The notes under the pieces are model-generated. The model was not told where the DNA came from. It saw nothing but the letters and a program-made list of their open reading frames with translations, and searched no databases. The position numbers and the translations under genes were made by a program. From positions 192,001 to 256,000 of the IMG/VR virus record IMGVR_UViG_3300036958_000333: a stretch of 64,000 bases of DNA; one strand, written 5' to 3'. Below, one piece after another: positions 322-17,223 of the stretch. Within the stretch, counting starts at the first letter, position 1, and each line of letters starts with the position of its first letter. This DNA is from a virus. Its lineage: Duplodnaviria; Caudoviricetes.

Positions 322-403
322 CATATAGATCTTATAAACAATAAGGCGAAAAATAGTTTTAAATAATAATCAATATTAAAATTAAAAATAAGAAAAGTAA
401 AAA

Positions 404-1666
404 ATGAATGAATTTGTACATATTCATTTACATACAGATTTTTCTTGCTTAGATGGATATTCTGATATAAAACAATATATTCAAAAAGCAAAAAAAAATA
501 ATATAAAATATTTTTCTGTTACAGATCATGGTAATTGCGCTTGTATTCCAAAATTAATACAAGAATGTAGGGAAAATGAAATAAAACCAATATTTGGATG
601 TGAATTTTATGTAAATAATTTTCATCATTTAGTTCCTAATTTTAAAAATTTATCTGATGAAGAAAAATATTTAGTAAAAAAGAACAATCATTTAATATTA
701 ATAGCTAAAAACGATATAGGTTATGAAAATCTAATAAAATTATCTTCTGAAAGTTGGATAAATGGATTTTATTATAAACCTAGAATATCACTTGATTTAA
801 TTAAAAAATATTCAGAAGGATTAATATGCACAACGGCATGTTTAGGATCAGAATTATCTCAATATATAATTAAAGAAAAATATAAAGAAGCAATAGATTT
901 AGTAAAAGAATACAAAGATATATTTGGAAAAGATTATTATTTAGAAATACAAATGATTAACATGAAAGAACAAGACGATGTCAATTCATATTTGATATCA
1001 TTATCAAATAAATTAGATATACCTTTGGTTCTAACTAATGATGTTCATTATTGTGAAAAGTCTGAATTTATTAATCAACAAATACTATTATTATTAAATT
1101 CTAAAGGAACAATAAGCAAGCCAGAAGGATTAGAGTTTCATACAAATCAGCTTTGGTATAAAACAATAGATGAATTAGACGAATTATGGGAAAATAATTA
1201 TAAATCAACTATACCTTTAGAAGAATATAAAGAATCAAAAATAAATACGGTAAAAATATGCGAAAAATGTAATGTTGTAATAGATACAAATCCAAAATTT
1301 CCAAAAATAGAAAATGCAGAAAACGAAATATCAGAAAGATGTATAACTGCAATGAAAAAGAAAGGGTTATATAAAAATAAAATATATCGAGATAGATTTT
1401 TAAAAGAATATGAGGTTATATTTTCTAAAAATTATTGTTCTTATTTTATGGTAGTAACAAAAATTATAGAATATGTTAAAAACGAATTAAAAGAACAAGT
1501 AGGTCCTGGAAGAGGAAGTTGTGGTGGAAGTTTGATATGTTATTTGTTAGGAATAACGCAAGTAGATCCAATTAAACATGAATTATTTTTCGAAAGATTT
1601 TTATCTAAAAGTCGCGGCGGTAAATTTGCAAAACTACAATTTGAAGAAAAAGACGAAATAATATGA
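404..1666 (+). CDS. dnaE: DNA polymerase III alpha-like, N-terminal fragment (PHP domain + first part of palm)
   Basis: PHP motifs HIHLHTDFS..DG, VTDHG, GCEFY, HLILIAKN..GY.NL, TACL, TNDVHY. Palm motifs VGPGRGSCGGSLICYLLGITQVDP and FERFL..R. Stops before PDIDxD. Confidence 0.95.
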   Translation: MNEFVHIHLHTDFSCLDGYSDIKQYIQKAKKNNIKYFSVTDHGNCACIPKLIQECRENEIKPIFGCEFYVNNFHHLVPNFKNLSDEEKYLVKKNNHLILIAKNDIGYENLIKLSSESWINGFYYKPRISLDLIKKYSEGLICTTACLGSELSQYIIKEKYKEAIDLVKEYKDIFGKDYYLEIQMINMKEQDDVNSYLISLSNKLDIPLVLTNDVHYCEKSEFINQQILLLLNSKGTISKPEGLEFHTNQLWYKTIDELDELWENNYKSTIPLEEYKESKINTVKICEKCNVVIDTNPKFPKIENAENEISERCITAMKKKGLYKNKIYRDRFLKEYEVIFSKNYCSYFMVVTKIIEYVKNELKEQVGPGRGSCGGSLICYLLGITQVDPIKHELFFERFLSKSRGGKFAKLQFEEKDEII

Positions 1667-2265
1667 AAACAATAATTGTACAAAACGATAATCCAATGGA
1701 CTGTTTAATATATATAATAGATAATTTTATAGAAAACAGTCCTATGTATATAGAAACAGATTTAAATAATATTGATGTTTCTAGTGATTTTTTTAACAAA
1801 TATAAATCAATGTTTAAATGGCATTTCAATGATTCTTTTAGATCTGTTTTGGTTAAAATGAAAAGACCTTTAACAAAATATGAGTTTTCATATTATAATA
1901 GAATATATGACTATTTCGGAGTAAATCAAGAAGAAATAATATCTAGAAATTTTAATAACATAATTTGTAATTGGGATTCTAAATCTGATTACAAAAATCA
2001 TCCAAAACCATGTTTTTTAACAGCAAAATTTATACAAGAAAAAGAATATATACATTTATCTATAACGTTCAGAACACGAGATATTATTAAAAGATTATAT
2101 CCAAACTGGATAGCGTTAAGAATTTTTTTTCAAAAAATATGTGATAAACATTGTAAAAAAATGGGAAAACTATTTGATTTTTCTAATCAAATAATCTGTG
2201 ATTCGAATAAAAGAAATCAAATAATGAATCTAGAAGAATATATAAATTATAAGCGACAGTATTAA
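1663..2265 (+). CDS. Divergent thymidylate synthase-fold protein (pyrimidine C5 methyl/hydroxymethyl transferase-like)
   Basis: YYNRI..YFGVNQ, W...D, catalytic PC, FRTRD (RSxD equivalent), YPNW (Asn specificity position). ATGA overlap with the dnaE-N stop. Confidence 0.65.
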   Translation: MKTIIVQNDNPMDCLIYIIDNFIENSPMYIETDLNNIDVSSDFFNKYKSMFKWHFNDSFRSVLVKMKRPLTKYEFSYYNRIYDYFGVNQEEIISRNFNNIICNWDSKSDYKNHPKPCFLTAKFIQEKEYIHLSITFRTRDIIKRLYPNWIALRIFFQKICDKHCKKMGKLFDFSNQIICDSNKRNQIMNLEEYINYKRQY

Positions 2266-2284
2266 TATCAATAATTATAAAAAT

Positions 2285-3223
2285 ATGGATAAATATAGGA
2301 AAATATATATAAACATTAATTCCAAATGTAACTATAATTGTATCGGTTGTTTAATGAGTAAAAATTATAGAAATAAACTTGATTTTATAAGTTTAGATAA
2401 TATAAAAAATATAATAGAAAATAAATTAAACAAATTGGTAAATGATAATTGTAAAAATATATATGAGATAAGTGGTGGAGAGCCGACTCTACATCCAAAT
2501 TTTAAAGAAATATCCAAATATATTCACGAAATACCAAATTCATATAAAACCGTTTTATTAACAAATGGAGATAAATTATCAGATAATAATTTTTCTAATG
2601 AAATATCAAAATATTTAGATGATTTTGTAATTTCTTTTTATTCTATAGATAAAAAACAACAAGATGAAATTACAAAAGTGAAAGGGTCTTGTTCAAATAA
2701 ATTAAAAGCTATAGAAAATATAATTCAATTAAATAAGAAAGTTCATATAAAAACAATAGTATCTGCCAAAACATATAAATCAATACCTGAAATAGCTGAA
2801 TTTTTTGGAAAATTATATGGTAATAAAATACATTTTACAATAAATTCAATACATTTGATTGGAGAAGCTTGGAATAATAAAAATAATCTTGCTATAAAAT
2901 ATACTGATTGTAGTCATTATATTGAAAAAGCAATAGATATAGCGTCATTATATAAAATGACTGTTAGTTTGTTTTTTCCTGCATGTATGATAGATCCAGC
3001 GTATTGGGAATTTCTTCCTATTAATTATGTAGAATCTATAAAAAGATCATATTCAATAACGCCAAATGGAGAATTAAATAAAGCTGGATTATTATTAGAT
3101 GAATTTATAAATAAAAACAAAACATGCAATGAATGTATAATTAAAGATAGGTGTAATTGGCCATGGGAAGAGTATATAAAAATATTTGGCGATAATGAAA
3201 TAATTAAAGGAGTAATAAAATAA
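2285..3223 (+). CDS. Radical SAM enzyme with C-terminal Cys cluster (HxsC/SPASM-like maturase type)
   Basis: CNYNCIGC (CxxxCxxC), SGGEPTLHP, LLTNG, C-terminal PAC...CNECIIKDRC. Confidence 0.9.
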   Translation: MDKYRKIYININSKCNYNCIGCLMSKNYRNKLDFISLDNIKNIIENKLNKLVNDNCKNIYEISGGEPTLHPNFKEISKYIHEIPNSYKTVLLTNGDKLSDNNFSNEISKYLDDFVISFYSIDKKQQDEITKVKGSCSNKLKAIENIIQLNKKVHIKTIVSAKTYKSIPEIAEFFGKLYGNKIHFTINSIHLIGEAWNNKNNLAIKYTDCSHYIEKAIDIASLYKMTVSLFFPACMIDPAYWEFLPINYVESIKRSYSITPNGELNKAGLLLDEFINKNKTCNECIIKDRCNWPWEEYIKIFGDNEIIKGVIK

Positions 3224-3224
3224 T

Positions 3225-3374
3225 ATGAATAATAATAAAAATAAAAAAAATAAAAATACAATCATGGTGTTTTCTAAAAAACGAAAATGTTTTATAAAAT
3301 TCGATGTAGTTCCAAATAAAATTAAAAAAGAGCTAATCGAAAATATTGGATGCAGTAATTCAGATTATGGTTAG
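3225..3374 (+). CDS. Unannotated 49-aa peptide MNNNKNKKNKNTIMVFSKKRKCFIKFDVVPNKIKKELIENIGCSNSDYG
   Basis: Hand-translated. ATG lies 1 nt after the rSAM stop and the ORF fills the gap to the next gene. Confidence 0.55.
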   Translation: MNNNKNKKNKNTIMVFSKKRKCFIKFDVVPNKIKKELIENIGCSNSDYG

Positions 3375-3386
3375 AAAGATATATAA

Positions 3387-4841
3387 ATGTTAAAAAAATG
3401 GATTTATGATAATTTATATGATTATAAAAAATCACAATTAACACCATCTAGATGTAATTTTAACTGGTTTAAAAAGAGAAATTTAGAAAACTATTATTAC
3501 AAAATAATAGAAAGTACTGGTTTTTTAGACAAAAATTCGGAATTAAAAGAAAGAATATATTATATAACTAATAATATCAATAAACAAATAACTTGTAAAA
3601 ATTGTGGAATTAATATAAAATATTATAGGAAATTCTGTTCTACAAAATGTTCAAGTAAATCTATAGAAGTTAGAAATAAAACCGCAAAAACGAATATGAA
3701 AAAATATGGAAATTCATGTTCTTTAAATAATGAAATTGTTAATTATAAAAAAAACAAAACATGGTTAAAAAAATATGGATGTAATCATATATTTCAAAAT
3801 GAAAAAATTAAATTAAAAATACAAAATACATTAAGAAAGAAACACAACAATGATTTAATAACAAACCAAGGACAAGTTCATTTAACAAAAGATATAATAG
3901 AGAAAATTAACAGTAAAGAATTTTTATATAATGAATATGTTATAAATAAAAAAACATATTCAGAAATAGCTAGGGATGTTGGAGTAAGCACAAGAACTAT
4001 ATGGCTACATGCAAAAAGTTTTAACATACAATCGAGAACAAGCTCGTTTAGATCATCTTATGAAAATGATATAATGAGCTTCATTCCTAGTAATTTTATA
4101 ATATTAAAGAATGTAAAAGACATAATACCACCATATGAACTAGATTTATATCTTCCTGATTATAAGTTAGCGATTGAATTTAACGGAATATATTGGCATT
4201 CACATAATAATGAAAAAAATAATGTAATAAATAGACATTATATAAAAACAAAACTATGTAAACGAAAAAATATTAAATTATTACATATATTTGAAAACGA
4301 ATGGATAAATAAAACAAAAAGACAGGTATGGAAATCAATAATTAATAATAAATTAAATAAAAATATATCATTAAATATTAATGATTGTAATATACAAGAT
4401 ATAAAAGATATAAATATTATAAATAATTTTATAAATGATAACAGCATAACATGTTTAGATAAATTTAATTTATGTGTTGGATTATATAATAATAATGAAC
4501 TATTGTCTATTTTATATGGATATTATAAAAATAACAAATTAATTTCTGATTTTTGTACTAAAAACAATCATTTTATAAAAAATTCAAAAAAAGCATTAAT
4601 TGATTTTTTTATACAAAAATATAAACCATATAAAATAATAACAAAAATAGATTTAAGATATAATGATATAACTGACTATGAAGAATTAAATATGAAATAT
4701 ATAAGATATGAAAAACCAACATTTATGTATATAAAAAATAATAAATTTTATGGCGAAAAAAATATAAATCCTATATTTGAAAATGAATATAGAAAAATAT
4801 GGAATTGTGGTAAAATTATTTTAGAATGGAGAAGTAATTAA
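3387..4841 (+). CDS. Putative free-standing homing endonuclease (PD-(D/E)XK type) with Zn-ribbon, KKYG repeats and HTH
   Basis: CKNC...FCSTKC, TNMKKYG/TWLKKYG repeats, HTH YSEIARDVGVSTRTI, nuclease core ELDLYLPDYKLAIEFNGIYWH. Confidence 0.7.
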   Translation: MLKKWIYDNLYDYKKSQLTPSRCNFNWFKKRNLENYYYKIIESTGFLDKNSELKERIYYITNNINKQITCKNCGINIKYYRKFCSTKCSSKSIEVRNKTAKTNMKKYGNSCSLNNEIVNYKKNKTWLKKYGCNHIFQNEKIKLKIQNTLRKKHNNDLITNQGQVHLTKDIIEKINSKEFLYNEYVINKKTYSEIARDVGVSTRTIWLHAKSFNIQSRTSSFRSSYENDIMSFIPSNFIILKNVKDIIPPYELDLYLPDYKLAIEFNGIYWHSHNNEKNNVINRHYIKTKLCKRKNIKLLHIFENEWINKTKRQVWKSIINNKLNKNISLNINDCNIQDIKDINIINNFINDNSITCLDKFNLCVGLYNNNELLSILYGYYKNNKLISDFCTKNNHFIKNSKKALIDFFIQKYKPYKIITKIDLRYNDITDYEELNMKYIRYEKPTFMYIKNNKFYGEKNINPIFENEYRKIWNCGKIILEWRSN

Positions 4842-4843
4842 AT

Positions 4844-5614
4844 ATGTCTAAAAAAGAAAGATTAGAAAACGATGGAGAAAAAAGAATTATTAATAAAACA
4901 GATCTTCGAACAGATACTGCGACAAAAAGAGTTTACATTCATAGGGATTATATCGCTCATGTATTAAGATATACTCATGTTGTTAAATGGTTTCAGAAAT
5001 TAAAAAACAGAAAAGACAATTTAAATATTTTAGATATGGGTTGTGGAAAAGAATTTCCTATATTAAGAATGTGTTATACTAATAAATTAAAACCACAATA
5101 TTATCTTGGTTTAGATATAAGAAAATTAAATTTTGATGAATTTCATAAAGAAATGAAACCTAATTTTGATTATGAATTTCAGCAATATGATTTTATTAAT
5201 CCTTTACCAAAATGTAAAAACGGAAATTGGGATTTTATTATATTTTTAGAAGTTTTAGAACATAATTCTAAAGAAGCAGGTATAAAAATATTAGAAAATA
5301 TTAAAAATATAATGAATCCAGATACAATATTTATTATGTCAACTCCATCATTTAATGGAAAAGCCGCTGAAAATCATATATATGAATGGGAATATCAAGA
5401 ATTAAAGCAAGAATTAGAAAAAACATTTATTATAGAAAATCATTATGGGACATTTGCGTCTCAAAAAGATATAGAAAATGTTATGTCTGATTGTGAAAAA
5501 GAAATATATGAAAAATTAAAAGATTATTATGATAGCAATTTCTTGTCTGCTGTTTTTGCACCAATTCACCCATATGCGTCTCGTAATTGTTTATGGAGAC
5601 TTAGATTAAAATAA
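4844..5614 (+). CDS. Class I SAM-dependent methyltransferase
   Basis: ILDMGCG motif I, YLGLDI, FLEVLEH, MSTP, HIYEW. Confidence 0.85.
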   Translation: MSKKERLENDGEKRIINKTDLRTDTATKRVYIHRDYIAHVLRYTHVVKWFQKLKNRKDNLNILDMGCGKEFPILRMCYTNKLKPQYYLGLDIRKLNFDEFHKEMKPNFDYEFQQYDFINPLPKCKNGNWDFIIFLEVLEHNSKEAGIKILENIKNIMNPDTIFIMSTPSFNGKAAENHIYEWEYQELKQELEKTFIIENHYGTFASQKDIENVMSDCEKEIYEKLKDYYDSNFLSAVFAPIHPYASRNCLWRLRLK

Positions 5615-5679
5615 ATCATATAAATCAATACCATTAAAATTTATAATAATATTTTATTATTAATATAATATATAATATT

Positions 5680-5925
5680 ATGATAGGAAGATCGTATTTT
5701 TGTGTAAGTTGTGGATATAAAAGTTCTAACTCTAATTCTTTAATTAAAGGAAAAGGAGGATGCTCCAGCTGTGGTAAATCTAATTATAAGTGCCCAAGAT
5801 GTGGAATGATTATGAAAATGAAAAAAATAGAAATACAAAATAATAATGTTTTTGAAAAAGCTATAAGCCCAAATATTGGAATAAAAGAAGGTTATTACGG
5901 TAATATTAGAATCAAAAGAGCATAA
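5680..5925 (+). CDS. Small Zn-ribbon protein (3 CxxC)
   Basis: CVSC, CSSC, CPRC. Confidence 0.7.
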   Translation: MIGRSYFCVSCGYKSSNSNSLIKGKGGCSSCGKSNYKCPRCGMIMKMKKIEIQNNNVFEKAISPNIGIKEGYYGNIRIKRA

Positions 5926-6091
5926 TATTATAGAATATAAGTACGTTTGTATTTTATGTTCTTATTCTTCTATAAATACAAGTAATCTTAAAAAAGTAGA
6001 ATGCAAAGAATGCAAAGATAAAAAAAACAATTTCAATTATCTTTGTCCATTGTGTCAATATCCTTTATTAAAATATAAATTAAAAAAATAA
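5897..6091 (+). CDS. Unannotated small Zn-ribbon paralog, non-ATG start (ACG or ATT)
   Basis: Hand translation ...YKYVCILCSYSSINTSNLKKVECKECKDKKNNFNYLCPLCQYPLL has the same CxxC layout as the upstream ORF. GAAGG lies just before ACG5897. Confidence 0.55.
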   Translation, partial: TVILESKEHNIIEYKYVCILCSYSSINTSNLKKVECKECKDKKNNFNYLCPLCQYPLLKYKLKK

Positions 6092-6152
6092 AGCGAATAT
6101 TTTAATTATATTAGAACTAGAAATGTAATTAATTGTATTTATAGGAATAATT

Positions 6153-7025
6153 ATGAAAGAAAAATTTCTTATAATAGATACCTATAACATGATTATAAGG
6201 TCTAAAAATTCAAAGGGAAAAACAATAGAATTATTTATAAAAACATTATATGATTCTATATTATTATTTAACCCAACAAGGGTTATTATGCCTATAGATG
6301 ATTATGTTGGAAATAGTTTTAGAAGAAAAATATTACCAACATATAAACAAAGAAATGATAAACAATTATTAAATCATAGTTTAGATTATAATTTTAAGAA
6401 AGAAAAATTTTCAATATTAAAAATTATAAAAACAATATTGCCAGTATATTTTTTGAAATATAAAGGATATGAAGCTGATGATATAATATCTATTATATGT
6501 AAAATAATTTCCGACAATATTGATATAATAATTTGGTCGAATGATCTAGACCTGGTTCAATTACAACAAAAATTTAACAATGTAAAGGTTTATGATCCAA
6601 AATCTAAAAGTTTCTTTAAAAGTCCTAAATATAATTTAGCTTATTATAAATCAATTATTGGAGATAAATCAGATAACATACCTGGAATTATAGAAATGAA
6701 TCATAAAATGGCAAAAAAAGCTTTAAGTTCATACAGCGAGTTTATAAGATTAATTGCAAGTGATCCAATAAAATATATAAAATATAAAAATAATTTAAAA
6801 ATAATAGATTTAATAAATAATAATCTTGAAATTCCAAGTAATTTAATATTTATATTAGAATCAAGTGTAAAATATCATCAAAAGGCATTTGAAAGAATAT
6901 TAAAGAACAATAAAATATATAGTATTATAAAACAAATTAATGAATATCATCAAGCTTTTTATTATTTAGAAAAATATAGTGAAATAAAAGGAGATAACTT
7001 TTTTAACAAAGGAGCTGGTAAATGA
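6153..7025 (+). CDS. 5'-3' exonuclease / T4 RNase H-like flap nuclease
   Basis: LIIDTYN, SFRRKILPTYK, YEADDII, SNDLDLVQL, GDKSDNIPGI. Confidence 0.92.
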   Translation: MKEKFLIIDTYNMIIRSKNSKGKTIELFIKTLYDSILLFNPTRVIMPIDDYVGNSFRRKILPTYKQRNDKQLLNHSLDYNFKKEKFSILKIIKTILPVYFLKYKGYEADDIISIICKIISDNIDIIIWSNDLDLVQLQQKFNNVKVYDPKSKSFFKSPKYNLAYYKSIIGDKSDNIPGIIEMNHKMAKKALSSYSEFIRLIASDPIKYIKYKNNLKIIDLINNNLEIPSNLIFILESSVKYHQKAFERILKNNKIYSIIKQINEYHQAFYYLEKYSEIKGDNFFNKGAGK

Positions 7026-7219
7026 ATGAAAGATGTCATGGAAAAAGAATTTTTATAGATGAAAATAATAATAAATATATTGGATTTAATAAAGATGATT
7101 TAGAATATGAAAGAGAAATATTAAAATCAATAATGAACAAAGAAGAAAATGTATTAATTAATTTATGGGCAATGAATAAAATAATATTGATAAATGATTT
7201 TATAGAAGAAAATCAATAA
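7022..7219 (+). CDS. Hypothetical protein
   Basis: ATGA-coupled to the exonuclease, with an AAGGAG SD upstream. Confidence 0.6.
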   Translation: MNERCHGKRIFIDENNNKYIGFNKDDLEYEREILKSIMNKEENVLINLWAMNKIILINDFIEENQ

Positions 7220-7220
7220 T

Positions 7221-8111
7221 ATGAACATTTATGTTAATACTGGCGGAGTAGAAGCTTTAATTATTACTGATAATTTAAAAAAATGGATAAAAAATACAGA
7301 TTATAATAATTCTGGATATGTTGATTTCAAGATATCTAAAGTATTTAAAAATATAGAATTTAATTATATTAGTATTTATAATTTTAATGAAATATTTAAA
7401 TCACTTGATTATAATAAAATATTTTGTTTTGGAAATAAAATTTATTTAAAATCGAAAAATAATTATTATTTAATAATAAGTTTGTCTAAATTTGGGTATT
7501 TTAGTGAAGATAAAAAGTCCAAACATTATATAATGTTTAAAATAAACGATGTTCCTTTATATTATAATGATATTTTATATTTTGCAGATACAATATCTTT
7601 TTTAAACAACGAAAACATTCCATATAATATGTATAGTCAAATTAAAAATTCTTTAGAATGGAGAGATGAAGATGCTGCATTTAAATTTACAAGAAAATGT
7701 AGAATGTCTGATAAAAGATTAAATCTACCAATATTTAGATGTATGATAAATAATAGAATTATACAGGGTATTAATGATATTTATGCAAGTGAATCATTAT
7801 TTGAATCAAAAATTCCTATAAATAAAAAGATAAAAGATTTACATGATAGAAAAATATTTGAAATAATATCAAAATGCCAAGAAATAATGAGAAAAAGCTA
7901 TATGTTAGGAGGATTTATAGAAAAAGGGCGCGAAAGTCTTGGGCCAAAAGGATATGGTAAAAAAATATTAAAAGTTTATGGAAAAAAAGGAAAACTATGT
8001 GAAAATTGTAAATCTGGAATTATACAATCAAAAAAAATTAAACTATCAAAAAACACTTTTATAAAAATGTATTATTGTCCAATTTGTCAATCGGAGAAAA
8101 ACAATGAATAA
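7221..8111 (+). CDS. Fpg/Nei (MutM-like) DNA glycosylase homolog lacking the catalytic N-terminal Pro-Glu
   Basis: H2TH-like IQGINDIYASESLF; Fpg Zn finger VYGKKGKLCENC...YYCPICQ. N-terminus is MNIYVNTGGVE rather than MPELPEVE. Confidence 0.8.
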   Translation: MNIYVNTGGVEALIITDNLKKWIKNTDYNNSGYVDFKISKVFKNIEFNYISIYNFNEIFKSLDYNKIFCFGNKIYLKSKNNYYLIISLSKFGYFSEDKKSKHYIMFKINDVPLYYNDILYFADTISFLNNENIPYNMYSQIKNSLEWRDEDAAFKFTRKCRMSDKRLNLPIFRCMINNRIIQGINDIYASESLFESKIPINKKIKDLHDRKIFEIISKCQEIMRKSYMLGGFIEKGRESLGPKGYGKKILKVYGKKGKLCENCKSGIIQSKKIKLSKNTFIKMYYCPICQSEKNNE

Positions 8112-8847
8112 AAAAATAAAAGATATGACTGTTGAAGAATATAAGGAATATAGACGAAAATATGCAAAAGAATACAATGAAAGAAAGAAAAAAGAAAAAG
8201 AAAAAAATCATCATGATAATGTAATAAAAAAATTAAAAGGAAAAGCAAAAAAACATTATATATCAGAAATGTCTTCTGAAGATGAAAAAAATATAAAAAA
8301 AATAGATGATAATAAATTTAATTTAATAAATTGGCCAAATGGAACTTTTTTTCCATTAAAGGTTCTTTATAATTCGGCAAATTTATATTTAGACTATACA
8401 GGATTTGATGCATTCATTGAAGTAACAGGATGTGTTGAAATAAGAGGAGAAGGAAAAGATAAAAAAATAATATTAGGAATAAATATAATAGTTATATCAG
8501 GAAGTTCAATTGGTCGATATTTTAAAACATATAATATTTGGGAAAAAGATATAACATACATGAAAGAAAATATAACATCTAAAAATTATTTCAAAGAATT
8601 ATTACCAATGACTCAAAAAGAATGTAGTGAAATAAAAAAAATGTCATTTGAAAAATTTATAACAACATGTATAGAATATTGCAATAAAGAAAAACAAGAA
8701 GCTGTTGATATAATATGGAGTTCTATAACGCCAGAATGTGAAAAAAAATATGGAATTACATTAGAAAAAATAAATTCTATTGCAGATGTAAAAGTAAATA
8801 AAAATAAAATAATTAAATATTCTAAAAAAATAAAGAGAAAAAAATAA
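8104..8847 (+). CDS. Hypothetical protein
   Basis: 247-aa ORF with a GGAG SD, in operon context. Confidence 0.7.
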   Translation: MNKKIKDMTVEEYKEYRRKYAKEYNERKKKEKEKNHHDNVIKKLKGKAKKHYISEMSSEDEKNIKKIDDNKFNLINWPNGTFFPLKVLYNSANLYLDYTGFDAFIEVTGCVEIRGEGKDKKIILGINIIVISGSSIGRYFKTYNIWEKDITYMKENITSKNYFKELLPMTQKECSEIKKMSFEKFITTCIEYCNKEKQEAVDIIWSSITPECEKKYGITLEKINSIADVKVNKNKIIKYSKKIKRKK

Positions 8848-8889
8848 TTATAATCCTTTTATTTATTATAATATATATTATAAAACTCA

Positions 8890-8930
8890 GCTGAACTAAA
8901 ATAAAATTGCGATTTCTGTTCAGCGAATCG
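8890..8930 (+). promoter_or_regulatory. Candidate 5'-UTR H-type pseudoknot next to the SD of ORF 8948
   Basis: GCTGAAC (8890-8896) pairs with GTTCAGC (8918-8924). Loop CGATTT (8910-8915) pairs with GAATCG (8925-8930). AAGGAG follows at 8936-8941. Confidence 0.45.
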
Positions 8931-8947
8931 GTTAAAAGGAGTAAAAT

Positions 8948-9634
8948 ATGTATAAAAATAATTTTGTAGTATGTATTAAAGATTGTAATGGACAAGTTCT
9001 TAGAGAAACAAACAACAATGAAGTTTATCTACCGTTTTATTCAGAATATTCTATAAAGATAAAAAACAAAAATGATTATGATTGTATTGCGTCAATATTT
9101 ATAGACGGAATAGATATTCTAAATGGTTCGTTTTTATTTATTAAAAAAGAAGACGAAACAGAAATAGAAAGATTTTTTTTAGATGAAAATGAAAATAATG
9201 GAAAAAAATTTAAGTTTGTTCCTTCTGATAATATAAAAGAATCAGATAAAAATGAAAATGGAATAATAAGAATAAAACTACTAAAACAAAATAATAATAA
9301 TACATATACGTATTATTATCCATATTATGATCCATATAGGATTTATAAACCATATAGTCCAACATATCCAGTATATTCATGTTCAAAAACAACAAGTGAA
9401 TATGAAACATTAAGCTTATATTCTGGAAAAACAGAGGAAGGATTAGAATCTAACCAATCATTTTTTAAAAAAGATAATATAATATATAGTGATTTTACTG
9501 AAATTATAATTAAATTGAAACATAATGACAAAACTTTAACAATAAATAATACTAAAAATAAATTTTGTAAAAATTGTGGAAAAAAAATGAAAATAAAAGA
9601 TTTTTTTTGTTCTAAATGTGGAAATAAATTATAA
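8948..9634 (+). CDS. Hypothetical protein with C-terminal zinc ribbon
   Basis: Strong SD; CKNCGK...FCSKCG at the C-terminus. Confidence 0.75.
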   Translation: MYKNNFVVCIKDCNGQVLRETNNNEVYLPFYSEYSIKIKNKNDYDCIASIFIDGIDILNGSFLFIKKEDETEIERFFLDENENNGKKFKFVPSDNIKESDKNENGIIRIKLLKQNNNNTYTYYYPYYDPYRIYKPYSPTYPVYSCSKTTSEYETLSLYSGKTEEGLESNQSFFKKDNIIYSDFTEIIIKLKHNDKTLTINNTKNKFCKNCGKKMKIKDFFCSKCGNKL

Positions 9635-9660
9635 AAAGATAAATTTAAAGGAAATAATAT

Positions 9661-9966
9661 ATGAAAGAAAATATAGTATCTCAAAAAGAAATAGAAAATC
9701 TTACATTAATAAATTCAAATTTTGCATCATCAAACAGGCAATTAGTAAAACAATTTAAAGAAATAAATAAAAAATTATTTTTATATGAAAACCAAATAAA
9801 ATTAATAAAAAAAGATATTGATGATATTAAGAAAGAAAATCAAATAAAATTAAACATAGCCACCATACAACGTAAAGATCCTATAGAAATCGAAAAAACA
9901 AAATCTAAAATAGAAATAATAGACAAAATAAATAATATAATTAAAGAAAGACTAAATTTTATTTAA
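9661..9966 (+). CDS. Hypothetical coiled-coil protein
   Basis: AAGGA SD, 101 aa. Confidence 0.6.
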   Translation: MKENIVSQKEIENLTLINSNFASSNRQLVKQFKEINKKLFLYENQIKLIKKDIDDIKKENQIKLNIATIQRKDPIEIEKTKSKIEIIDKINNIIKERLNFI

Positions 9967-11230
9967 ATAAATGTAATTTTGAATAAATTCTTTTAGCAAG
10001 AATATTATTTGAAATTATGTTTTCTGCTTCTATCCATCTCTTTTCTAAAACAAATACTGCATATTTTACTGCTAATATTGCATAATTATTTTTTAATATT
10101 TCTTCTTCTAATTTTTCCCATCTTGTGTTTTTAACGATTTGCTCGTGATGTTTTAAATATTTAATAATATATGGATATTCAAACATTTTACCAGAAAACA
10201 TAAGTTGACCTTTTATTGTATTAGCATCATATTCTAAACCACGCCTGTTAGTTCCATAGCTGATAACATTTCCTTTTTAAACTTTTACAAATTCATTATA
10301 TTTAAAACCATGAGTATATCCTCCTTTAGGAATCTTATATATTCCATCTTCAACCTGTTTATTTTTTTCATCGAAAAATTTTTCTACAGCTTTAATAAAA
10401 CCAGGAACATTTGTTCCATAAACCTGTTTATTTATTACATAATAAGGTTTCTTTTCAGGATATTCTTTATTATAATACGGTTTAATAAGAACTCTACATA
10501 TTGGATTTCTTATTTGAGTATCTCCTTTTCTTATAAGATATGCTATAACTGTCCCTTCTTTAACTTCTTCTTCTACAACATTATCTTTATTATATATATT
10601 TTGACAACTAGTCCATCCTTTGTTTGTAGACATACCAGCAACATCCGTAGGGTGTTTAGAAATAGCAATAAAAAAATCTCCACCAGAAGAAGAAGATCTT
10701 CTCGATGCAGATCTATATTTATCTTCAGAAAAATCTTTTAATAATTTTTTTAGTTATCTTAATAATTCTGATAATTCTATAATTCTTTTTTCTTTAACAT
10801 TTAAATCTTCAATATTTAATAAATTACTTATCTCTTCTCTTAATACCATTATTTCTTTTTCTATTTCTGTTATTTTTCTTTGTAATAATTTTCCTATTGA
10901 AATTTTTCTTATTATTTCTTTTCTTTTTCCATCTATTTCTTTTATTTCTTTTTTTAATGCAATACCAGATAAATAATCATATGTCTTATAACCAATATTA
11001 TTTAAATATCTATTTATTTCATCGTAAGAAGAATTTTTTTCTACATAATTTACATTTTCTATTTTAAAAGGAATATAAATCCTATAATTATTACCAAATA
11101 TTTCTTTATGAACATTTTTATAATAAAAATGAGTTCCTTCTGCTTGTTTAGCAATTCTAGTATATTTTTTATCTAGTCTTAAACTTCAAAGACTTTCATA
11201 TAATTTTCTAAAATATTCTGAAAACCTCAT
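9959..11230 (-). pseudogene. Paralog of 11266-12702 interrupted by three in-frame stop codons
   Basis: One frame from ATG11230 (MRFSEYFRKLYE) to 9959, with TGA at 11188-11186, TAA at 10756-10754 and TAA at 10279-10277. Colinear with the neighbour (AISKHP.DV..MS.NKGWTSC, IAYLI...D.QI.NPICRVLIKP, YA.FVLE.RW.EAE). Confidence 0.85.
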
Positions 11231-11265
11231 ATTATATTATATAATAATCTAAAAATTTCATATTA

Positions 11266-12702
11266 TTAATTTAATTTTGGATCTATTCCTCTATCCAAAC
11301 AATAATGTTTCCAATATTTTTCGTTTTGTTTTAATATATCTTCTGCTTCTGGAACTCTTACTTTTTTTATAAAATTAGCTACAACAAGATAAGCAAAAGT
11401 TGCATGTATATCTTTAAATACAGATTTTTCAAATTCTTTATCTCTATGACCTAATACTTTTATTAAATAAAGACAAGAAGCCAAAGGATCAGTTAAAATA
11501 ATATCTTCTGCTTCTGGCCATCTTTCTTCTAAAACAAATGCAGCATATTGAGCTGCCAATATTGGGTCCTTGTCTTTTAATACCTGTTCTTCTAATTTTT
11601 TCCATGTTTTATTTATAAAAGATTTATTATGTTCTTCTTCTTGAACCTTAATAAACAATGGATATTCTTTCATTTTATTTACAAAATCTTTTTTTATAAT
11701 ATCAGAGTCGATTATATTATTCTTATAAATATTATAACCAACAATATTACCTTTTTTAAGTTTTATAAAATCTCCATATTGAATTGAAGATTCAAGATTA
11801 TGTGATTGTGGATTACGACCATATAATCCAGTCATTTCTTTAGATATTTTGTCATTAATTTCATTAAAAAATTTCTTTACCGTTTCAACAAAACCTGGAA
11901 CATTTGCTCCATAAACCACGTCACTTGTTATAAAATATGGTTGTTTTTCTTCTTCTTTATATTTAAAAAATGGCTTAATAAGAACTCTACATATTGGGTT
12001 TGATATTTGTTTGTCTTCTTTTTTTATAAGATATGCTATAATAGTTCCAGATACAGCTTCTTGAATTGCTAGAGATCCTGCCATACAGCTAGTCCATCCT
12101 TTATTAACAGACATACTACCAACATCTATTGGATGTTTAGAAATAGCAACAAGAAAATCTTCAGAAGATTTTCTTGCCAAAGATCTTGCTGGATCTTTAA
12201 CAAAATTTTTTAACAATTCTTTTGCTAATTCCAATGATTCTGATAAATTTTTAATCTCTTCTTTTTTAATTTCTATTTTATCGGTATTTTTTTCTTTTGA
12301 TAATTTTTTTATTTCTTCTTCTAATAAATCTATTTCTTTTTTCATTTTTGTTATTTTTCTTTCTAACAATTTTCCTATTGTTATTTCTCTTACTACATTT
12401 TTTCCAAACATGTAATTATTTTGTTTTTTACTTATAGCAATACCAGACGAATAATCATCTATCTCATAACCAAACTTATTTAAATAATTATTTAATTTGA
12501 TATACGAAGGGAGATTTTTTATATTATCGTTGTCTTTTTCTTTAAAAGGAATATAAATTCTTGATTTATCACCAAATATTATTTTATGAATATGTTTATA
12601 AGAAGATCCTATTAATTTTCTAATTTCTTTAGTAAATTTACGATCTTTCCTAAAACTTCCAAAACCTTCGTATAACCTTTTATAATATTCTGAAAATTTC
12701 AT
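11266..12702 (-). CDS. Hypothetical protein, probable head-packaged internal protein
   Basis: 478 aa; N-terminus MKFSEYYKRLYE; TATAAATA immediately upstream. Confidence 0.75.
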   Translation of the reverse strand: MKFSEYYKRLYEGFGSFRKDRKFTKEIRKLIGSSYKHIHKIIFGDKSRIYIPFKEKDNDNIKNLPSYIKLNNYLNKFGYEIDDYSSGIAISKKQNNYMFGKNVVREITIGKLLERKITKMKKEIDLLEEEIKKLSKEKNTDKIEIKKEEIKNLSESLELAKELLKNFVKDPARSLARKSSEDFLVAISKHPIDVGSMSVNKGWTSCMAGSLAIQEAVSGTIIAYLIKKEDKQISNPICRVLIKPFFKYKEEEKQPYFITSDVVYGANVPGFVETVKKFFNEINDKISKEMTGLYGRNPQSHNLESSIQYGDFIKLKKGNIVGYNIYKNNIIDSDIIKKDFVNKMKEYPLFIKVQEEEHNKSFINKTWKKLEEQVLKDKDPILAAQYAAFVLEERWPEAEDIILTDPLASCLYLIKVLGHRDKEFEKSVFKDIHATFAYLVVANFIKKVRVPEAEDILKQNEKYWKHYCLDRGIDPKLN

Positions 12703-12708
12703 ATTATT

Positions 12709-12716
12709 TATTTATA
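12709..12716 (-). promoter_or_regulatory. T4-type late promoter-like TATAAATA
   Basis: Exact TATAAATA on the - strand, 6 nt before ATG12702, with no SD. Confidence 0.45.
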
Positions 12717-12776
12717 AGCGAAAACAAAAAAAATAATAAATTCTTTACAAATTTATAAAAATTAAGGAAAAATAAA

Positions 12777-14084
12777 TTGGAAAAATTAAAAAAAATAGCA
12801 ATTGAAAAATCAAAAGATAATAAGAAATATATAAAAAGATTAAATATTGAATTTGAAGAAATAGATAAGGCCGGTTTATGGAACTATTTCAAAGAAATAA
12901 TTAAATCAAATAAAAAATTTCATAATACTAATAATTTATTATGTGCATACTTGTGGGGAATATGTCCTGAAAATCCAATAGATAAAGACGAAGAATTAAA
13001 ATGGTACTATAGTAATGAATATCCAGATATAGACGTAGATTTTTCTCCAGAATCTAGAGATAAAATAAAAGAATTTTGCGCAAAAGAATTTGGAGAAAAT
13101 AATGTTGTATCAATAGCAAATTATAATCATTTTGGAATAAAATCCGGAATAAGAGACATTTCAAGGGTATTAGAAATACCATTAGAAGAGGTAAATGAAT
13201 GTACAACAAAACTAAATGATGATGTAAATGACATGAAATGGGAAGATGCTATAAAAACATATCCCGTACTGGAACAATTTGAAAAAGAACACCCAAAAGT
13301 ATGTGAATTAGTCAAACAATTTAATGGAAAAGTAAGATCTATAGGAAAACATGCTGGAGGATTAGTAATATCATCTTGTGATTTAACTAAAACAATACCG
13401 TTAATAACAAGAGAAAATCCAGAAAGTGATAAAAAATTTATATTATCTTCATTTTCAGAAGGTCAAAATAGATCTGATTTAAAAACAATGGGTTTAATAA
13501 AACAAGATATACTTGGATTAGATAATCTAAACTATATAAGTACTTGTTTAAAATATATGGAACAAAGAGGAAAATATGATCCTAAAAAGGGAATATTTAG
13601 AACAAAAGAAGACGGAGAAAATTGGGAAGATGAATCATATTTAAACGATCCAGAGTCAATAAAAGTAGCAAATAATGCAGATTTACAGCTTGTATTTCAA
13701 TTTGATTCTGATGGAATAAGAAAATTAGTTAAAAAAACTGGGGTTAATAATTTTTATGATTTAGTAGTATTTAATGCGCTGTATAGGCCTGGTCCTTTAA
13801 ACTGTTTGGAAGAAAATACTAAAATACTTACAAATAATGGATATGTTGAAATAAAACTTCTATCAAATAAACATAATAAAATTGCCTATATAGACAATAA
13901 TGGAAATATTAAGTATACATCCAAATTTATAGTAAAAAAGAAAAATAAAACAAAAAAAATATTAAAAATATCAACGAGTGAAAATGAAATATTATCTTCA
14001 TTAGATCATAAGTTTCTTAATAAAGATAATAAATTTATTGAAGCAAAAAGATTAAAAATTAATGATGAAATAAAAACAATATGA
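12777..14084 (+). CDS. dnaE: DNA polymerase III alpha-like, middle fragment (catalytic palm/fingers) fused to an N-terminal split-intein half
   Basis: TTG start after AAGGA. YPDIDVDF, IGKHAGGLVIS, KQDILGL, VFQFDS.G, ALYRPGPLN, then CLEENTKILTNNG. Confidence 0.95.
   Translation: MEKLKKIAIEKSKDNKKYIKRLNIEFEEIDKAGLWNYFKEIIKSNKKFHNTNNLLCAYLWGICPENPIDKDEELKWYYSNEYPDIDVDFSPESRDKIKEFCAKEFGENNVVSIANYNHFGIKSGIRDISRVLEIPLEEVNECTTKLNDDVNDMKWEDAIKTYPVLEQFEKEHPKVCELVKQFNGKVRSIGKHAGGLVISSCDLTKTIPLITRENPESDKKFILSSFSEGQNRSDLKTMGLIKQDILGLDNLNYISTCLKYMEQRGKYDPKKGIFRTKEDGENWEDESYLNDPESIKVANNADLQLVFQFDSDGIRKLVKKTGVNNFYDLVVFNALYRPGPLNCLEENTKILTNNGYVEIKLLSNKHNKIAYIDNNGNIKYTSKFIVKKKNKTKKILKISTSENEILSSLDHKFLNKDNKFIEAKRLKINDEIKTI
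13803..14081 (+). mobile_element. Split intein N-half (IntN, 93 aa)
   Basis: Block A CLEENTKILTNNG, block B SSLDHKF, ends FIEAKRLKINDEI-stop. Confidence 0.92.
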
Positions 14085-14968
14085 AAAGAATTCCATGGAA
14101 TAAAGGTCTAAATAAATATAATAATAAAACAATGGCTATAATAGCTGAAAAAGTAAAAAAATCTTATGATAAAAAAAGAAGAAAAGAATATTCTGATAAA
14201 TTAAAAGAAAAATATAAAAACGGCGATATATTAACTCCAGAAAAAAGAAGAAAAGTAATATTATGTGGATCTAAAGCTTGGGCTAATAAAGTAAAAAACG
14301 CTTCACTAGAAGAAAGGAAAAAAATATTATTTAATTTTATTACTGCTGGAAATAATGCTCAAAAAGAAAGAAGAAAACATCTAACTCCAGAAGATTATCA
14401 AAGATTATATCCGTTTGCGAAAGGAATAGCGAAATATTATAATTGCGATAATTGTGGAAAAAAAGTAATAAAATGGTTTGGTGGTAAAAAAAGATCAAAT
14501 AAAAGATTTTGTTGTAGAAAATGTTATACCGACTTTTTAAGAAAAAATCCATCATATGGAATAAATAACAAAAAACAAATTCTTTTTTATTCTAAAAAAA
14601 TGTTATGTCATTTTAAACTTTTATCTAGTTTAGAAAAATATATAGCAAATATATTAGAAGAATCAAAATGGATAAAAACATGGAGCGCAAACTCTATATG
14701 TATTCAATATGTTGATAAAAATAAAAAGAAAAGAAGATATTATCCTGATTTTTTCTTTAATGATAAATACATTTTAGAAGTAAAATCAAATTATGTAGAA
14801 AATATAAATAAAAATAAAGATAATTTAAATAATAAAAAAATGGAAGCTAGAAAATACTGTAAAAAAAATGGATTTGTATTTTTATATTGGAAATTTAATA
14901 AAACAGATGAAAAAAGTGTTATAAAAGATCGTAGAATTAAATTTTTATTTGGCGAAATAAATCAATAA
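14081..14968 (+). CDS. Free-standing homing endonuclease between the intein halves (NUMOD3-like + Zn finger + TnsA-like PD-(D/E)XK)
   Basis: PWNKG, CDNC...FCCRKC, SSLE...RRYYPDF...ILEVKS. ATGA overlap with the IntN stop. Confidence 0.8.
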   Translation: MKRIPWNKGLNKYNNKTMAIIAEKVKKSYDKKRRKEYSDKLKEKYKNGDILTPEKRRKVILCGSKAWANKVKNASLEERKKILFNFITAGNNAQKERRKHLTPEDYQRLYPFAKGIAKYYNCDNCGKKVIKWFGGKKRSNKRFCCRKCYTDFLRKNPSYGINNKKQILFYSKKMLCHFKLLSSLEKYIANILEESKWIKTWSANSICIQYVDKNKKKRRYYPDFFFNDKYILEVKSNYVENINKNKDNLNNKKMEARKYCKKNGFVFLYWKFNKTDEKSVIKDRRIKFLFGEINQ

Positions 14969-14982
14969 TACAAAATAAAATC

Positions 14983-15117
14983 ATGATTAAAATAAAAAAA
15001 ATACAATCAATAAAAAAATTAGAAGAAAAACAAACATGTTATGATATATGTTTATTAGAAAAAGATACATATATTAATGAATCTAATTTTATAGCAGAAG
15101 GTTTTATAGTTCATAAT
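14983..15117 (+). mobile_element. Split intein C-half (IntC, 45 aa)
   Basis: MIKIKKIQSIKK...CYDI...NFIAEGFIVHN followed by Ser+1 (15118-15120). Confidence 0.92.
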
Positions 15118-16614
15118 TCTGGAATGGCAAATGCTTATACTGAAAGAAGAAATGGAAAAAAAGATTATAAGACACATGAAATATTAGATAAAATAATAGG
15201 AGACACACAATATGTTATAATATATCAAGAACAATTATTAAAAATAATGAATGTTATTGGAAATATTTCTTTACAAGACTGTGAAATGATAAGAAAAGCA
15301 ATGGCCAAAAAAAGAGAAAAAGAATTCATAAAATATAAAGAAATATTTATTGAAAATGGACAAAAAACCCTAGAATGGAGCAAACAAGAAATAGAAGAAT
15401 TATGGAATCAAATGATTACATTTGCAGATTATGGATTTAACAAATCTCACTCTGTTGCATATACTATGATATCTTCAAGATGTTTATATTTAAAGACTCA
15501 TTATCCAGAAGAATATTTTGCTGCAGTTTTAACGCATTTAAAAACTGGAGATGAAAGAATAAAAAAGTATATACAAGAAGGAGAAAAAAAAGGACTTGTA
15601 TTTATACCGTTAGATATAAATAAATCCAAAACAGGATTTATACCAACAGAAAATGGAATTATAATAGGATTTGATAAAATAAAAGGAATCAAAAAAGAAG
15701 CCATAGAATTAATAAACTTACAACCATTTCATTCTTTTGAAGATTATTTAGAAAGATATGGATTATCAAAAATAACTGCAGAAATATTAATAAAGGCAAA
15801 TGCTTTTAAAAATTTTGAAAATAATATTAAAATATTATTAGAATATTTTAATTATAGAAGAAGCATAAAAGAATCTGATTGTGGAATGGGTAAAAATGAT
15901 TTTGGAAAAATGTTTAAAGAAATAAAAGGATTAAAATCATGCCCTAAGAATATCTATGAACAATTTTTACAATTATGTGATAATAAAAGTAAAATAAAAT
16001 ATAATATATTATTAGATTTTATTAAAAATAATAAATTTGATTTTACAGAAATAGACAAAAACACAATTTTAGAATATATTGAAAAACATAAAAATATATT
16101 TAACTTATCTATAATGACATTAGAAGAATTTAAAAAACAACAACATATTCAAGAAATATCTGATTTTTCATATGAAGAAAAATGTGAATTTGAAGAAAAA
16201 CTATATTCTTTTTATTTTAATCATCCAATAGAAAATTATCAAATAGAAGGAAAACAAATATCAGATGTTATAGAAAATGATTTGGGAGGAATTATTGAAG
16301 GAATAATAAAAGATATAGTAAAAAAGAAAACAAAAAACGATAATTCATATTATATTTTAACTATAGAAGATAAATATGATCAAATTAAAGTTTTACTATG
16401 GTCAAATCAATATAATAAGTATAAAGATATAATATATAAACAATCTGCTATAAGATTAAAAATTAAAAAAAGCCCTTATTCAGCATATAATTTATCAGAT
16501 GATGAAAATATTAAAAGAATAAGGAAAAAAGACGAATTATCTGAAAAAAAAGAAAAAGAAATAAAATTAAAAGAAGAATTTGAAAAACTATTAATAGATT
16601 TAGATAATAAATAA
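14983..16614 (+). CDS. dnaE: C-terminal split-intein half + DNA polymerase III alpha C-terminal fragment (fingers, HhH, OB-fold)
   Basis: IntC, then SGM...IYQEQ, IRKAMAKK, YGFNKSHSVAY, YLKTHYPEEY, LDINKS, GFDKIKGI and a C-terminal OB-like region. Confidence 0.95.
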   Translation: MIKIKKIQSIKKLEEKQTCYDICLLEKDTYINESNFIAEGFIVHNSGMANAYTERRNGKKDYKTHEILDKIIGDTQYVIIYQEQLLKIMNVIGNISLQDCEMIRKAMAKKREKEFIKYKEIFIENGQKTLEWSKQEIEELWNQMITFADYGFNKSHSVAYTMISSRCLYLKTHYPEEYFAAVLTHLKTGDERIKKYIQEGEKKGLVFIPLDINKSKTGFIPTENGIIIGFDKIKGIKKEAIELINLQPFHSFEDYLERYGLSKITAEILIKANAFKNFENNIKILLEYFNYRRSIKESDCGMGKNDFGKMFKEIKGLKSCPKNIYEQFLQLCDNKSKIKYNILLDFIKNNKFDFTEIDKNTILEYIEKHKNIFNLSIMTLEEFKKQQHIQEISDFSYEEKCEFEEKLYSFYFNHPIENYQIEGKQISDVIENDLGGIIEGIIKDIVKKKTKNDNSYYILTIEDKYDQIKVLLWSNQYNKYKDIIYKQSAIRLKIKKSPYSAYNLSDDENIKRIRKKDELSEKKEKEIKLKEEFEKLLIDLDNK

Positions 16615-16629
16615 AATGGAGGAAAAATA

Positions 16630-17223
16630 ATGCCTAATTATATAGAATGGGGAAAAGACCCAGAAAAAGGAATGTCTTTATTTGGATTTTCTTGTAAAGC
16701 CGTTCTAGAAGGAAAAAAACTAAAAAGTGAAATAATTGGATTGTTAAAACAAGGAGAAGTTGGTATAAGAAAAGCCATAGCTCATTTTAAATCTGAATCA
16801 TTAGCGTGTTCTGATGAATCAATTAATGTTGTTATGAGAATAAAACAAGATATGAAAAATAACAATATAGATTATATTTATAAGAAAAGCTATGTTTATA
16901 CAATCAATAGGGTTTTTTGGGCACACGATAAAGACGTTCCAAAAAATGATCCGAGATATTGTAAATTAGAAATAATTGATTGTAATAAAATAAATAAAGA
17001 TAAATATATGAAATCAAACAGACAATTTGACGCAAAAAATTTTATAAAAGACTTTTCTAATCCAGAATTTTTAAAAACAAAAAAGAGTAAAAAGAATTTC
17101 TTTATAAAAGAAGAAATACCAGAATCAAACATTCCAAACGAACAAATCGACCAAGAATGGAACAATAATCAAAAGGAAGGATCTTTAAATACAAAAATTG
17201 AAAGAAGAAGAACAAAAAATTGA
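16630..17223 (+). CDS. Hypothetical protein
   Basis: Strong GGAGG SD, 197 aa. Confidence 0.75.
   Translation: MPNYIEWGKDPEKGMSLFGFSCKAVLEGKKLKSEIIGLLKQGEVGIRKAIAHFKSESLACSDESINVVMRIKQDMKNNNIDYIYKKSYVYTINRVFWAHDKDVPKNDPRYCKLEIIDCNKINKDKYMKSNRQFDAKNFIKDFSNPEFLKTKKSKKNFFIKEEIPESNIPNEQIDQEWNNNQKEGSLNTKIERRRTKN

Follow-up and report, generated by a model that had tools for sequence, protein, structure and literature searches.

A DnaE-type polymerase encoded in three genes of a large wastewater phage, with a predicted active site shared by two chains and a putative split intein

DNA polymerases encoded in separate pieces have been described in phages and bacteria. Iyer et al. (2021, Viruses 13:63; PMC7824862) reported a minimal split polymerase III (Pol III) alpha in group 2.2 jumbo phages, which consists of a nucleoside triphosphate (NTP)-binding protein and a Mg- and DNA-binding protein whose genes are far apart, lacks the other Pol III domains and occurs beside a family B polymerase. 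Fractured genes, in which a split intein has a free-standing endonuclease between its halves, were described by Dassa et al. (2009, NAR 37:2560; PMC2677866), including three DnaE loci from ocean metagenomes. As cited in the latter paper, the cyanobacterial split DnaE intein (Wu, Hu, Liu 1998) yields DnaE from two genes by trans-splicing, and the split family B polymerase gp43 of Aeromonas phage 25 has an endonuclease between its parts. Here we analyse a DnaE-type polymerase encoded by three separate open reading frames (ORFs), designated pieces A, B and C, in a stretch of 64,000 nucleotides (positions 192,001 to 256,000 of the IMG/VR record IMGVR_UViG_3300036958_000333; hereafter the window) from a phage of the Caudoviricetes.

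The three plus-strand ORFs with DnaE matches were recognized from the ORF list and Pfam, namely A at 404-1666 (420 residues), B at 12777-14084 (435 residues) and C at 14983-16614 (543 residues). C-family DnaE usually has its catalytic core in a single polypeptide, and here the core is spread over three ORFs, which cover positions 1-394 (A), 312-641 (B) and 641-895 (C) of the 1022-position TIGR00594 model. To our knowledge, every cellular C-family replicase studied so far has its GS loop and its catalytic aspartates on a single chain, at a distance of about 35 residues. The analysis documents gene structure, homology, conservation, co-occurrence and phylogeny; binding between the pieces, a composite active site, splicing activity and a replicase role are inferred. 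The probable explanation is a heteromeric three-gene DnaE-type polymerase in which A docks non-covalently and completes the active site in trans.

Piece A consists of a PHP domain and the nucleotide-binding half of the palm, with the following elements.
404..1666, plus strand: piece A, 420 residues, PHP domain and N-terminal palm, conserved tail and stop (Pfam; TIGR00594 1-394)
419..952, plus strand: PHP domain, residues 6-183 (Pfam PF02811, E 2e-49)
1337..1594, plus strand: duplicated palm segment in the version of A, residues 312-397 (compared with the B head by hhalign)
1502..1519, plus strand: GS loop GPGRGS, residues 367-372, a triphosphate-binding element (sequence and alignment)
1589..1615, plus strand: FERF helix, residues 396-404, with R398 and R404 (sequence and alignment)
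1616..1666, plus strand: conserved 16-residue tail, residues 405-420, and stop (kept down to 35-40% identity)

The alignment of A covers residues 5-396 of E. coli DnaE, ending just past the arginines of the FERF helix, and reaches up to residue 458 of Taq DnaE; the match to PF07733 is limited to profile positions 16-98. All nine PHP metal ligands are present (H8, H10, D17, H42, E67, H96, C146, D213 and H215, so that the set extends to H215), and they are invariant or nearly so among 44 A-type sequences. R370, G371, S372, R398, F399 and R404 are invariant in the same 44 proteins, which share 35-61% identity. Among the three pieces, the GS loop and the triphosphate-binding arginines occur in A alone and are deleted or lost in B. 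The first-pass annotation of the window had ascribed to 404-1666 a PHP domain with a full set of metal ligands, the GPGRGS and FERF motifs, and a stop with no intein signature. The nine ligands and both palm motifs bear this description out, and the Pfam and TIGRFAM profiles gave no Hint or intein match in piece A. Pfam likewise gives no alignment for tail residues 405-420. The hydrophobic pattern of the tail matches the catalytic strand of contiguous relatives, on which basis the tail may be a vestige of that strand with its aspartates replaced. In the model of A alone, the predicted local distance difference test score (pLDDT) is 88.8 overall and falls below 50 in the tail (residues 402-420).

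Piece B carries the catalytic half of the palm behind a diverged head.
12764..12779, plus strand: AGGA ribosome-binding site and TTG start of B, the AGGA lying 9 nt upstream
12777..13802, plus strand: B extein, residues 1-342, with the diverged head, catalytic palm, thumb and first part of the fingers (TIGR00594 312-641)
12786..13001, plus strand: diverged B copy of the palm segment, residues 4-75, with the GS loop deleted and the FERF arginines lost (hhalign, family consensus)
13023..13040, plus strand: catalytic strand PDIDVD, residues 83-88 (E. coli alignment; P83, D84, D86 and D88 invariant)
13500..13508, plus strand: KQD, residues 242-244, with the third catalytic aspartate (aligned to E. 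coli K-F-D; K242 and D244 invariant)

The start of B is aligned to the starts of its relatives. B aligns to residues 367-645 of E. coli DnaE and matches PF07733 at profile positions 11-260 and the finger profile at 25-102. The catalytic aspartates D84, D86 and D244 are found only in B among the three pieces, and the invariance of P83, D84, D86, D88, K242 and D244 holds in 45 B-type proteins, which are without the GS loop. As first annotated, the PDIDVD and KQD aspartates therefore belong to the second piece, 11.1 kb downstream of A, and alignment to E. coli DnaE (for A, to Taq DnaE as well), which that annotation had proposed, places A and B as it had claimed. The break falls between the elements that bind the triphosphate and the strand that binds the metals, in line with its description of an intein-free split through the active site. 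As judged from these alignments, strict selection maintains a different half of the nucleotidyl-transfer machinery in each chain.

The two pieces overlap, the B head being a diverged copy of the last ~85 residues of A. When the A-family alignment cut to residues 312-420 was compared with the B-family alignment cut to residues 1-100, hhalign gave a probability of 96.7 and an E-value of 4e-10 over 71 columns. A 12-residue gap in B lies exactly opposite the strand and GS loop of A, which indicates that the B copy lost the loop by deletion, and in the B-family alignment no new conserved basic residues replace the GS loop or the arginines. R21, E25 and N50 of the head are invariant in the 45 B-type proteins. 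By this measure the head is a conserved element, and its reading as debris fails. The degenerate second copy noted at first sight is thus real and has lost the GS loop and arginines, but it is not decaying; the proposed partial duplication with reciprocal loss is upheld by an overlap that is statistically significant and conserved across the family. The N-terminus of B was also considered as a decayed C-intein on account of an H-N-T triplet near residue 50. This candidate was rejected: the pattern is not conserved in the family, the region aligns to the A tail and the canonical palm, and it has no Hint match. In the model of B alone, the head has a pLDDT of ~90 and the catalytic strand (residues 80-87) one below 50.

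A complex of A with the B extein was predicted from alignments of both. It scored 0.84 in ipSAE (an interface score), the best of three controls scoring 0.01. Among solved complexes, 58 of 80 attain the pass mark, as do 2 of 110 mismatched pairs; such a pass would show likeness, not binding. The runs share at least 92% of their contacts, the model has about 250 confident contacts, and the pLDDT of the partner is at least 88. On the A side the predicted interface comprises the PHP surface, residues 364-373 (GS loop) and 402-414 (tail), and on the B side residues 74-90 (catalytic strand) and 24-64 (head). Both segments with a pLDDT below 50 in the single-chain folds, namely the A tail 402-420 and the B catalytic strand 80-87, overlap these regions. 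An active site assembled from two non-covalent subunits, as had been suggested for this locus, is supported to the extent that the prediction passes its controls and places the GS loop and A tail at the catalytic strand of B.

The same division was found well beyond the window. Searches with A retrieved A-type relatives of 417-480 residues with the same tail and stop, down to 35-40% identity, and searches with the B extein brought up a very large number of proteins of 820-950 residues that have no PHP domain and begin at the same position. The catalytic core lies at most 110 residues from the N-terminus in 236 of the 262 retrieved B relatives, which are thus PHP-less B-type proteins sharing this start, and 11 of the 262 are full-length. 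Three other assemblies have A and B on one contig, separated by 3.4, 7.9 and 8.4 kb; in these loci a helicase gene lies upstream, and genes for a methyltransferase, a FEN-type exonuclease, an H2TH glycosylase and a patatin lie between. Contigs of relatives reach 250-690 kb, one of them with a T4-type portal, and an ORF identical to A is present on a separate ENA contig (P0005). Pattern scans of IMG/VR gave one distant A-type locus and zero B loci; on that fragment (21% complete) only A was seen, B being more than 49 kb from A, and no PolB was found in this record. No B-type gene was found in 50,697 GenBank phage records, where the best match was the contiguous gene of LR756511.1. Judged by these searches, the same A/B fission marks a large clade of uncultured large phages. 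The locus had been presented as an unusual heteromeric phage replicase whose split might recur in related large phages. The split does recur (the 236 relatives above) and the heteromeric reading is supported, but the arrangement is widespread and not peculiar to the source phage.

Bacillus phage Edson (PV796108.1, 234 kb, ~191891-194998) was considered as a cultured example and rejected, its dnaE being interrupted after the catalytic strand, which is a different break. The interruption of ~750 bp, which may be an intron or another kind of insert, lies just after the PDxD strand, and the annotation calls each part of the gene a hypothetical protein.

The closest contiguous DnaE belongs to the 595-kb phage LR756511.1 (334079-343371, ORF 3995-7534). 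Together with four further contiguous proteins (P0347, P0282, P0279 and P0344), it nests deep within the split forms in a FastTree phylogeny of the B core with 148 tips, and this nesting was repeated in an independent tree of the A core and in an IQ-TREE analysis with 45 tips. The approximately unbiased (AU) test rejects a single split clade (p 1.4e-6), the constraint costing 112.5 log-likelihood units. In these contiguous relatives, the GS/arginine segment of A is joined directly to the catalytic strand, without the B head. Many identical fissions would be a far less parsimonious history than a single fission with one later re-fusion, and the contiguous genes accordingly look like a re-fusion of the A and B halves in which both redundant elements were lost. 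Because the re-fused genes keep the segment of A and are without the B head, the A segment would be the one used at the active site.

The third piece is separated from B by a putative split intein.
13803..14084, plus strand: N-terminal split-intein half, 93 residues, beginning with Cys, then stop (TIGR01445, PF14890)
14081..14968, plus strand: free-standing endonuclease ORF, 295 residues, between the intein halves (TnsA-like N-terminal domain)
14983..15117, plus strand: C-terminal split-intein half, 45 residues, ending in HN and followed by Ser (PF14890, TIGR01443)
15118..16614, plus strand: C extein, with the remaining fingers, HhH domain and C-terminal region (Pfam; TIGR00594 641-895)

Residues 343-414 of B match TIGR01445 with 27.8 bits (cut-off 24.5), and the N-intein also matches PF14890 at profile positions 3-92 and PT-HINT, with weak matches to the BIL domain 2lwy and the Npu DnaE N-intein. 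Residues 33-46 of C match TIGR01443 with 16.1 bits, just over the cut-off of 15.6, and the C-intein matches PF14890 at 120-155 (E 7e-5), so that the halves in B and C correspond to complementary parts of this profile. The finger domain PF17657 is likewise divided, with positions 25-102 in B and 81-164 in C, and PF14579 (HHH_6) is found in C. The B extein ends and the C extein starts at the same TIGR00594 position, 641, and the junction corresponds to the E. coli RPGP motif. Since the exteins meet at one profile position and RPGP is restored, removal of both intein halves would restore a contiguous DnaE, and B and C are predicted to join by protein trans-splicing. The matching halves thus support the earlier suggestion that the third piece is added in this way. 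The endonuclease ORF (14081-14968) adds an element to that picture. Its start overlaps the B stop and its end lies 15 nt before C. Its sole Pfam match, below the cut-off, is the TnsA-like N-terminal domain (E 8.9e-5); its neighbours in the protein atlas, which we take as leads, are viral NUMOD3 and TnsA-like clusters, and a sequence search of the PDB with this ORF gave no match.

Inteins occupy other sites in the relatives. None was found at the RPGP site of the window in the close relatives examined, which have contiguous inteins elsewhere. Four B-type relatives without an intein at RPGP (P0125-P0128, in loci L002 and L016) have contiguous inteins at YGFNK, the cyanobacterial split-DnaE site, and P0125 has an additional LAGLIDADG intein. 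In the A-type relatives P0008, P0011, P0012 and P0013, a mini-intein is inserted exactly at the GS loop (GRG/C…HN/S). Inteins favour functional sites, and these insertions fit a functionally critical GS loop in A. Three further A-type proteins (P0015, P0016 and P0018) stop after the N-part at the GS loop and look like N-terminal split-intein halves, which would add another break; truncation of the contigs is an alternative.

Taken as a mechanism, trans-splicing of B and C at RPGP would give one chain of ~840 residues with the catalytic aspartates, the thumb, the fingers and the HhH domain. A would remain a separate subunit, docking non-covalently and bringing a PHP domain predicted to be an active proofreading exonuclease, and its GS loop and FERF-helix arginines would act in trans to hold the incoming deoxynucleoside triphosphate (dNTP) by its triphosphate. 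The A/B fission would be old and would have begun with the ~85-residue overlap, followed by reciprocal loss, in which the catalytic-strand copy of A lost its aspartates and the copy in B lost the GS loop and arginines, the latter copy being kept probably as a docking surface. On balance we lean towards the wider view that an obligate two-subunit C-family polymerase with a composite site replicates a large clade of uncultured phages, that the disabled copies serve as docking modules, that a precise re-fusion occurred later in one lineage, and that a split intein made the core a three-gene one in the present phage.

Several points weigh against a site completed by A. Because A and B are halves of a protein with solved single-chain structures, the complex score may reflect the memory that the model has of single-chain DnaE structures, and the prediction leaves the place of the B head unfixed. 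Residues 1-246 of the B-alone model align to the canonical palm of E. coli DnaE, residues 289-557 (VIA-align, Z 7.5-8.5, root-mean-square deviation (rmsd) ~17 Å). Since the head folds confidently alone and aligns onto the canonical palm, it could compete with the A segment for the same place in the models. Foldseek and VIA-align confirm a DnaE palm in the B-alone model, but rmsd values of ~17-24 Å make its domain arrangement unreliable. The grouping used in the AU test was named after the first tree had been seen. Finally, the analysis covers the window, and another polymerase or a full-length DnaE elsewhere in the genome is possible.

The points on the B head bear on an explanation in which A would be a detachable PHP proofreading subunit whose palm fragment is only a docking handle, the B head would fill the canonical place, and the B-C chain would polymerise alone with a non-canonical way of holding the dNTP. 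A conserved head that folds confidently by itself and, in the B-alone model, falls in the stretch that aligns with the canonical N-terminal palm would suit such an enzyme, as would the complete set of PHP ligands. A mere handle, however, has no need of the triphosphate-binding residues that are invariant in 44 diverged A sequences; the B copy has had its GS loop deleted without acquiring new conserved basic residues there, and the re-fused relatives kept the A segment and dropped the B head. We consider this explanation rather improbable. That A and the B-C chain are independent, with A a stand-alone PHP phosphoesterase or nuclease bearing a vestigial palm stub and forming no stable complex, seems very improbable to us. 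Stand-alone PHP proteins exist, and A and B are more than 49 kb apart in one relative, but the complex prediction passes with its many confident contacts, the conserved A tail is disordered in the single-chain fold, the genes for A and B occur together in syntenic replication modules, and A has invariant palm motifs. That the arrangement is an artefact, reflects a decaying gene or is repaired in the nucleic acid (through misassembly, a pseudogene, RNA trans-splicing or bypassing, respectively) is hardly credible in view of the same termini in hundreds of independent assemblies, the identical A ORF on the ENA contig P0005, the opposite-strand genes between A and B, a distance between them that varies among relatives, and the strong conservation of both. 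In addition, metagenome runs on wastewater, activated sludge and anaerobic digesters, from at least nine studies (2016-2024), contain DNA near-identical to window positions 10000-17000. A docking subunit that completes the site in trans is therefore retained as the preferred explanation.

The source phage, from wastewater, is a large phage; the G+C content is ~21% across the 64-kb window, which contains myovirus baseplate genes. Two biofilm metatranscriptomes match small shares of window positions 10000-17000. The interval between A and B contains genes for a radical SAM protein, an HNH homing endonuclease, a methyltransferase and an exonuclease, and a block of minus-strand genes from ~9959 to 12702. 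The features outside the three pieces are as follows.
346..352, plus strand: GCGAAAA, 58 nt before the A start codon, a possible shared promoter element (weak evidence)
2285-3223, A-B interval: radical SAM gene
3387-4841, plus strand: free-standing HNH homing endonuclease (phrog_3339, E 4e-56)
4844-5614, A-B interval: methyltransferase gene
12718..12724, plus strand: GCGAAAA, 59 nt before the B start codon

The enrichment of GCGAAAA in the window is mild (7 matches, 2.6 expected), and a longer pattern common to the regions upstream of A and B did not hold up. Directly upstream, A is adjoined by a plus-strand ORF (1-321) that crosses the 5' edge of the window, the 3' end of which weakly matches a C-intein splicing region (PF14890 profile 96-155, E 0.008).

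Some features of the relatives were observed in passing. On a Logan contig of 21,274 nt (encoding P0017 and P0129), the replication module also has ThyX, an enzyme resembling CCA-adding/poly(A) polymerases and ribosomal protein S21, and an RNase T-like exonuclease directly follows B. On a contig of a related phage (GCA_004196295.1; L002, 2172-9961), piece A directly follows genes for PrkA, DUF444 and a 1463-residue SpoVR that contains two LAGLIDADG inteins. The B-type protein P0290 (611 residues) has a circularly permuted YpsA SLOG domain (PF12694, E 1.4e-29) fused to its N-terminus, and its C-terminal end is an intein N-part.

If the proposed enzyme exists as described, a natural and widespread polymerase that divides both elements would show that a pol-beta-like core tolerates fission at its centre, and the A/B pair would be a ready-made, two-hybrid-like system for studying active-site assembly. 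The locus would also serve as a model for gene fission by overlap and subsequent reciprocal loss, with the apparent natural reversal as an internal control; we know of no duplicated overlap in gp43 of Aeromonas phage 25. For annotation, PHP-less 'DnaE' proteins of 820-950 residues and 'truncated' PHP proteins of 420-480 residues in metagenomic phage contigs are probably partner subunits and not fragments. The B/C break would add a further example to the natural split inteins, located at a conserved site of DnaE. Full-text literature searches found no description of the PHP-bearing split A/B DnaE family.

For other jumbo phages, a Pol III alpha module split in this region has already been published (PMC7824862), and the layout of fractured genes is also known (PMC2677866). 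The group 2.2 system resembles the present one in having two distant genes for an N-terminal NTP-binding part and a C-terminal Mg- and DNA-binding part. Its N unit was found in phages GAP32 and RaK2 as ORFs of 172-188 residues that match PF07733 at 19-96 and stop within the FERF helix; a B profile search of the same two phages did not find the C unit. The N units end at PF07733 positions 95-96 and A at 98, and their similarity to the A tail (BLASTP E 1e-8) also indicates a break in the same region. The published version is without PHP, fingers and HhH domains, whereas the window proteins are full-size DnaE parts with an active-looking PHP domain, and a duplicated segment, present in the window family, is unreported for group 2.2 (PMC7824862). 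The window family further differs in being very abundant and in having one re-fused lineage, and its member in the source phage has a third, intein-mediated break.

With fractured genes, the B/C locus shares the order of N-extein with N-intein, endonuclease ORF, and C-intein with C-extein on one strand. The endonucleases reported there are of a Vsr-like family (PMC2677866); the window ORF resembles TnsA-like PD-(D/E)xK and NUMOD3 proteins. The cyanobacterial split DnaE, as far as it is outlined in that paper, is likewise a two-gene DnaE made by trans-splicing. Its split site lies in YGFNK, which is intact in piece C of the window, and in that outline it has neither an endonuclease between the halves nor an intein-free third piece, both of which are present here. 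The gp43 of Aeromonas phage 25, within the limits of the same outline, is comparable as a phage replicative polymerase built from non-covalently associated fragments without an intein; it belongs to another polymerase family and its break adjoins a homing endonuclease gene. The contiguous DnaE of LR756511.1 and bacterial DnaE1 proteins (Taq, 2hpi; M. tuberculosis, 5lew and 7pu7) agree with the combined pieces in domain order, PHP ligands, GS loop, arginines and aspartate triad, and differ from the window in having one chain with a single copy of the palm segment.

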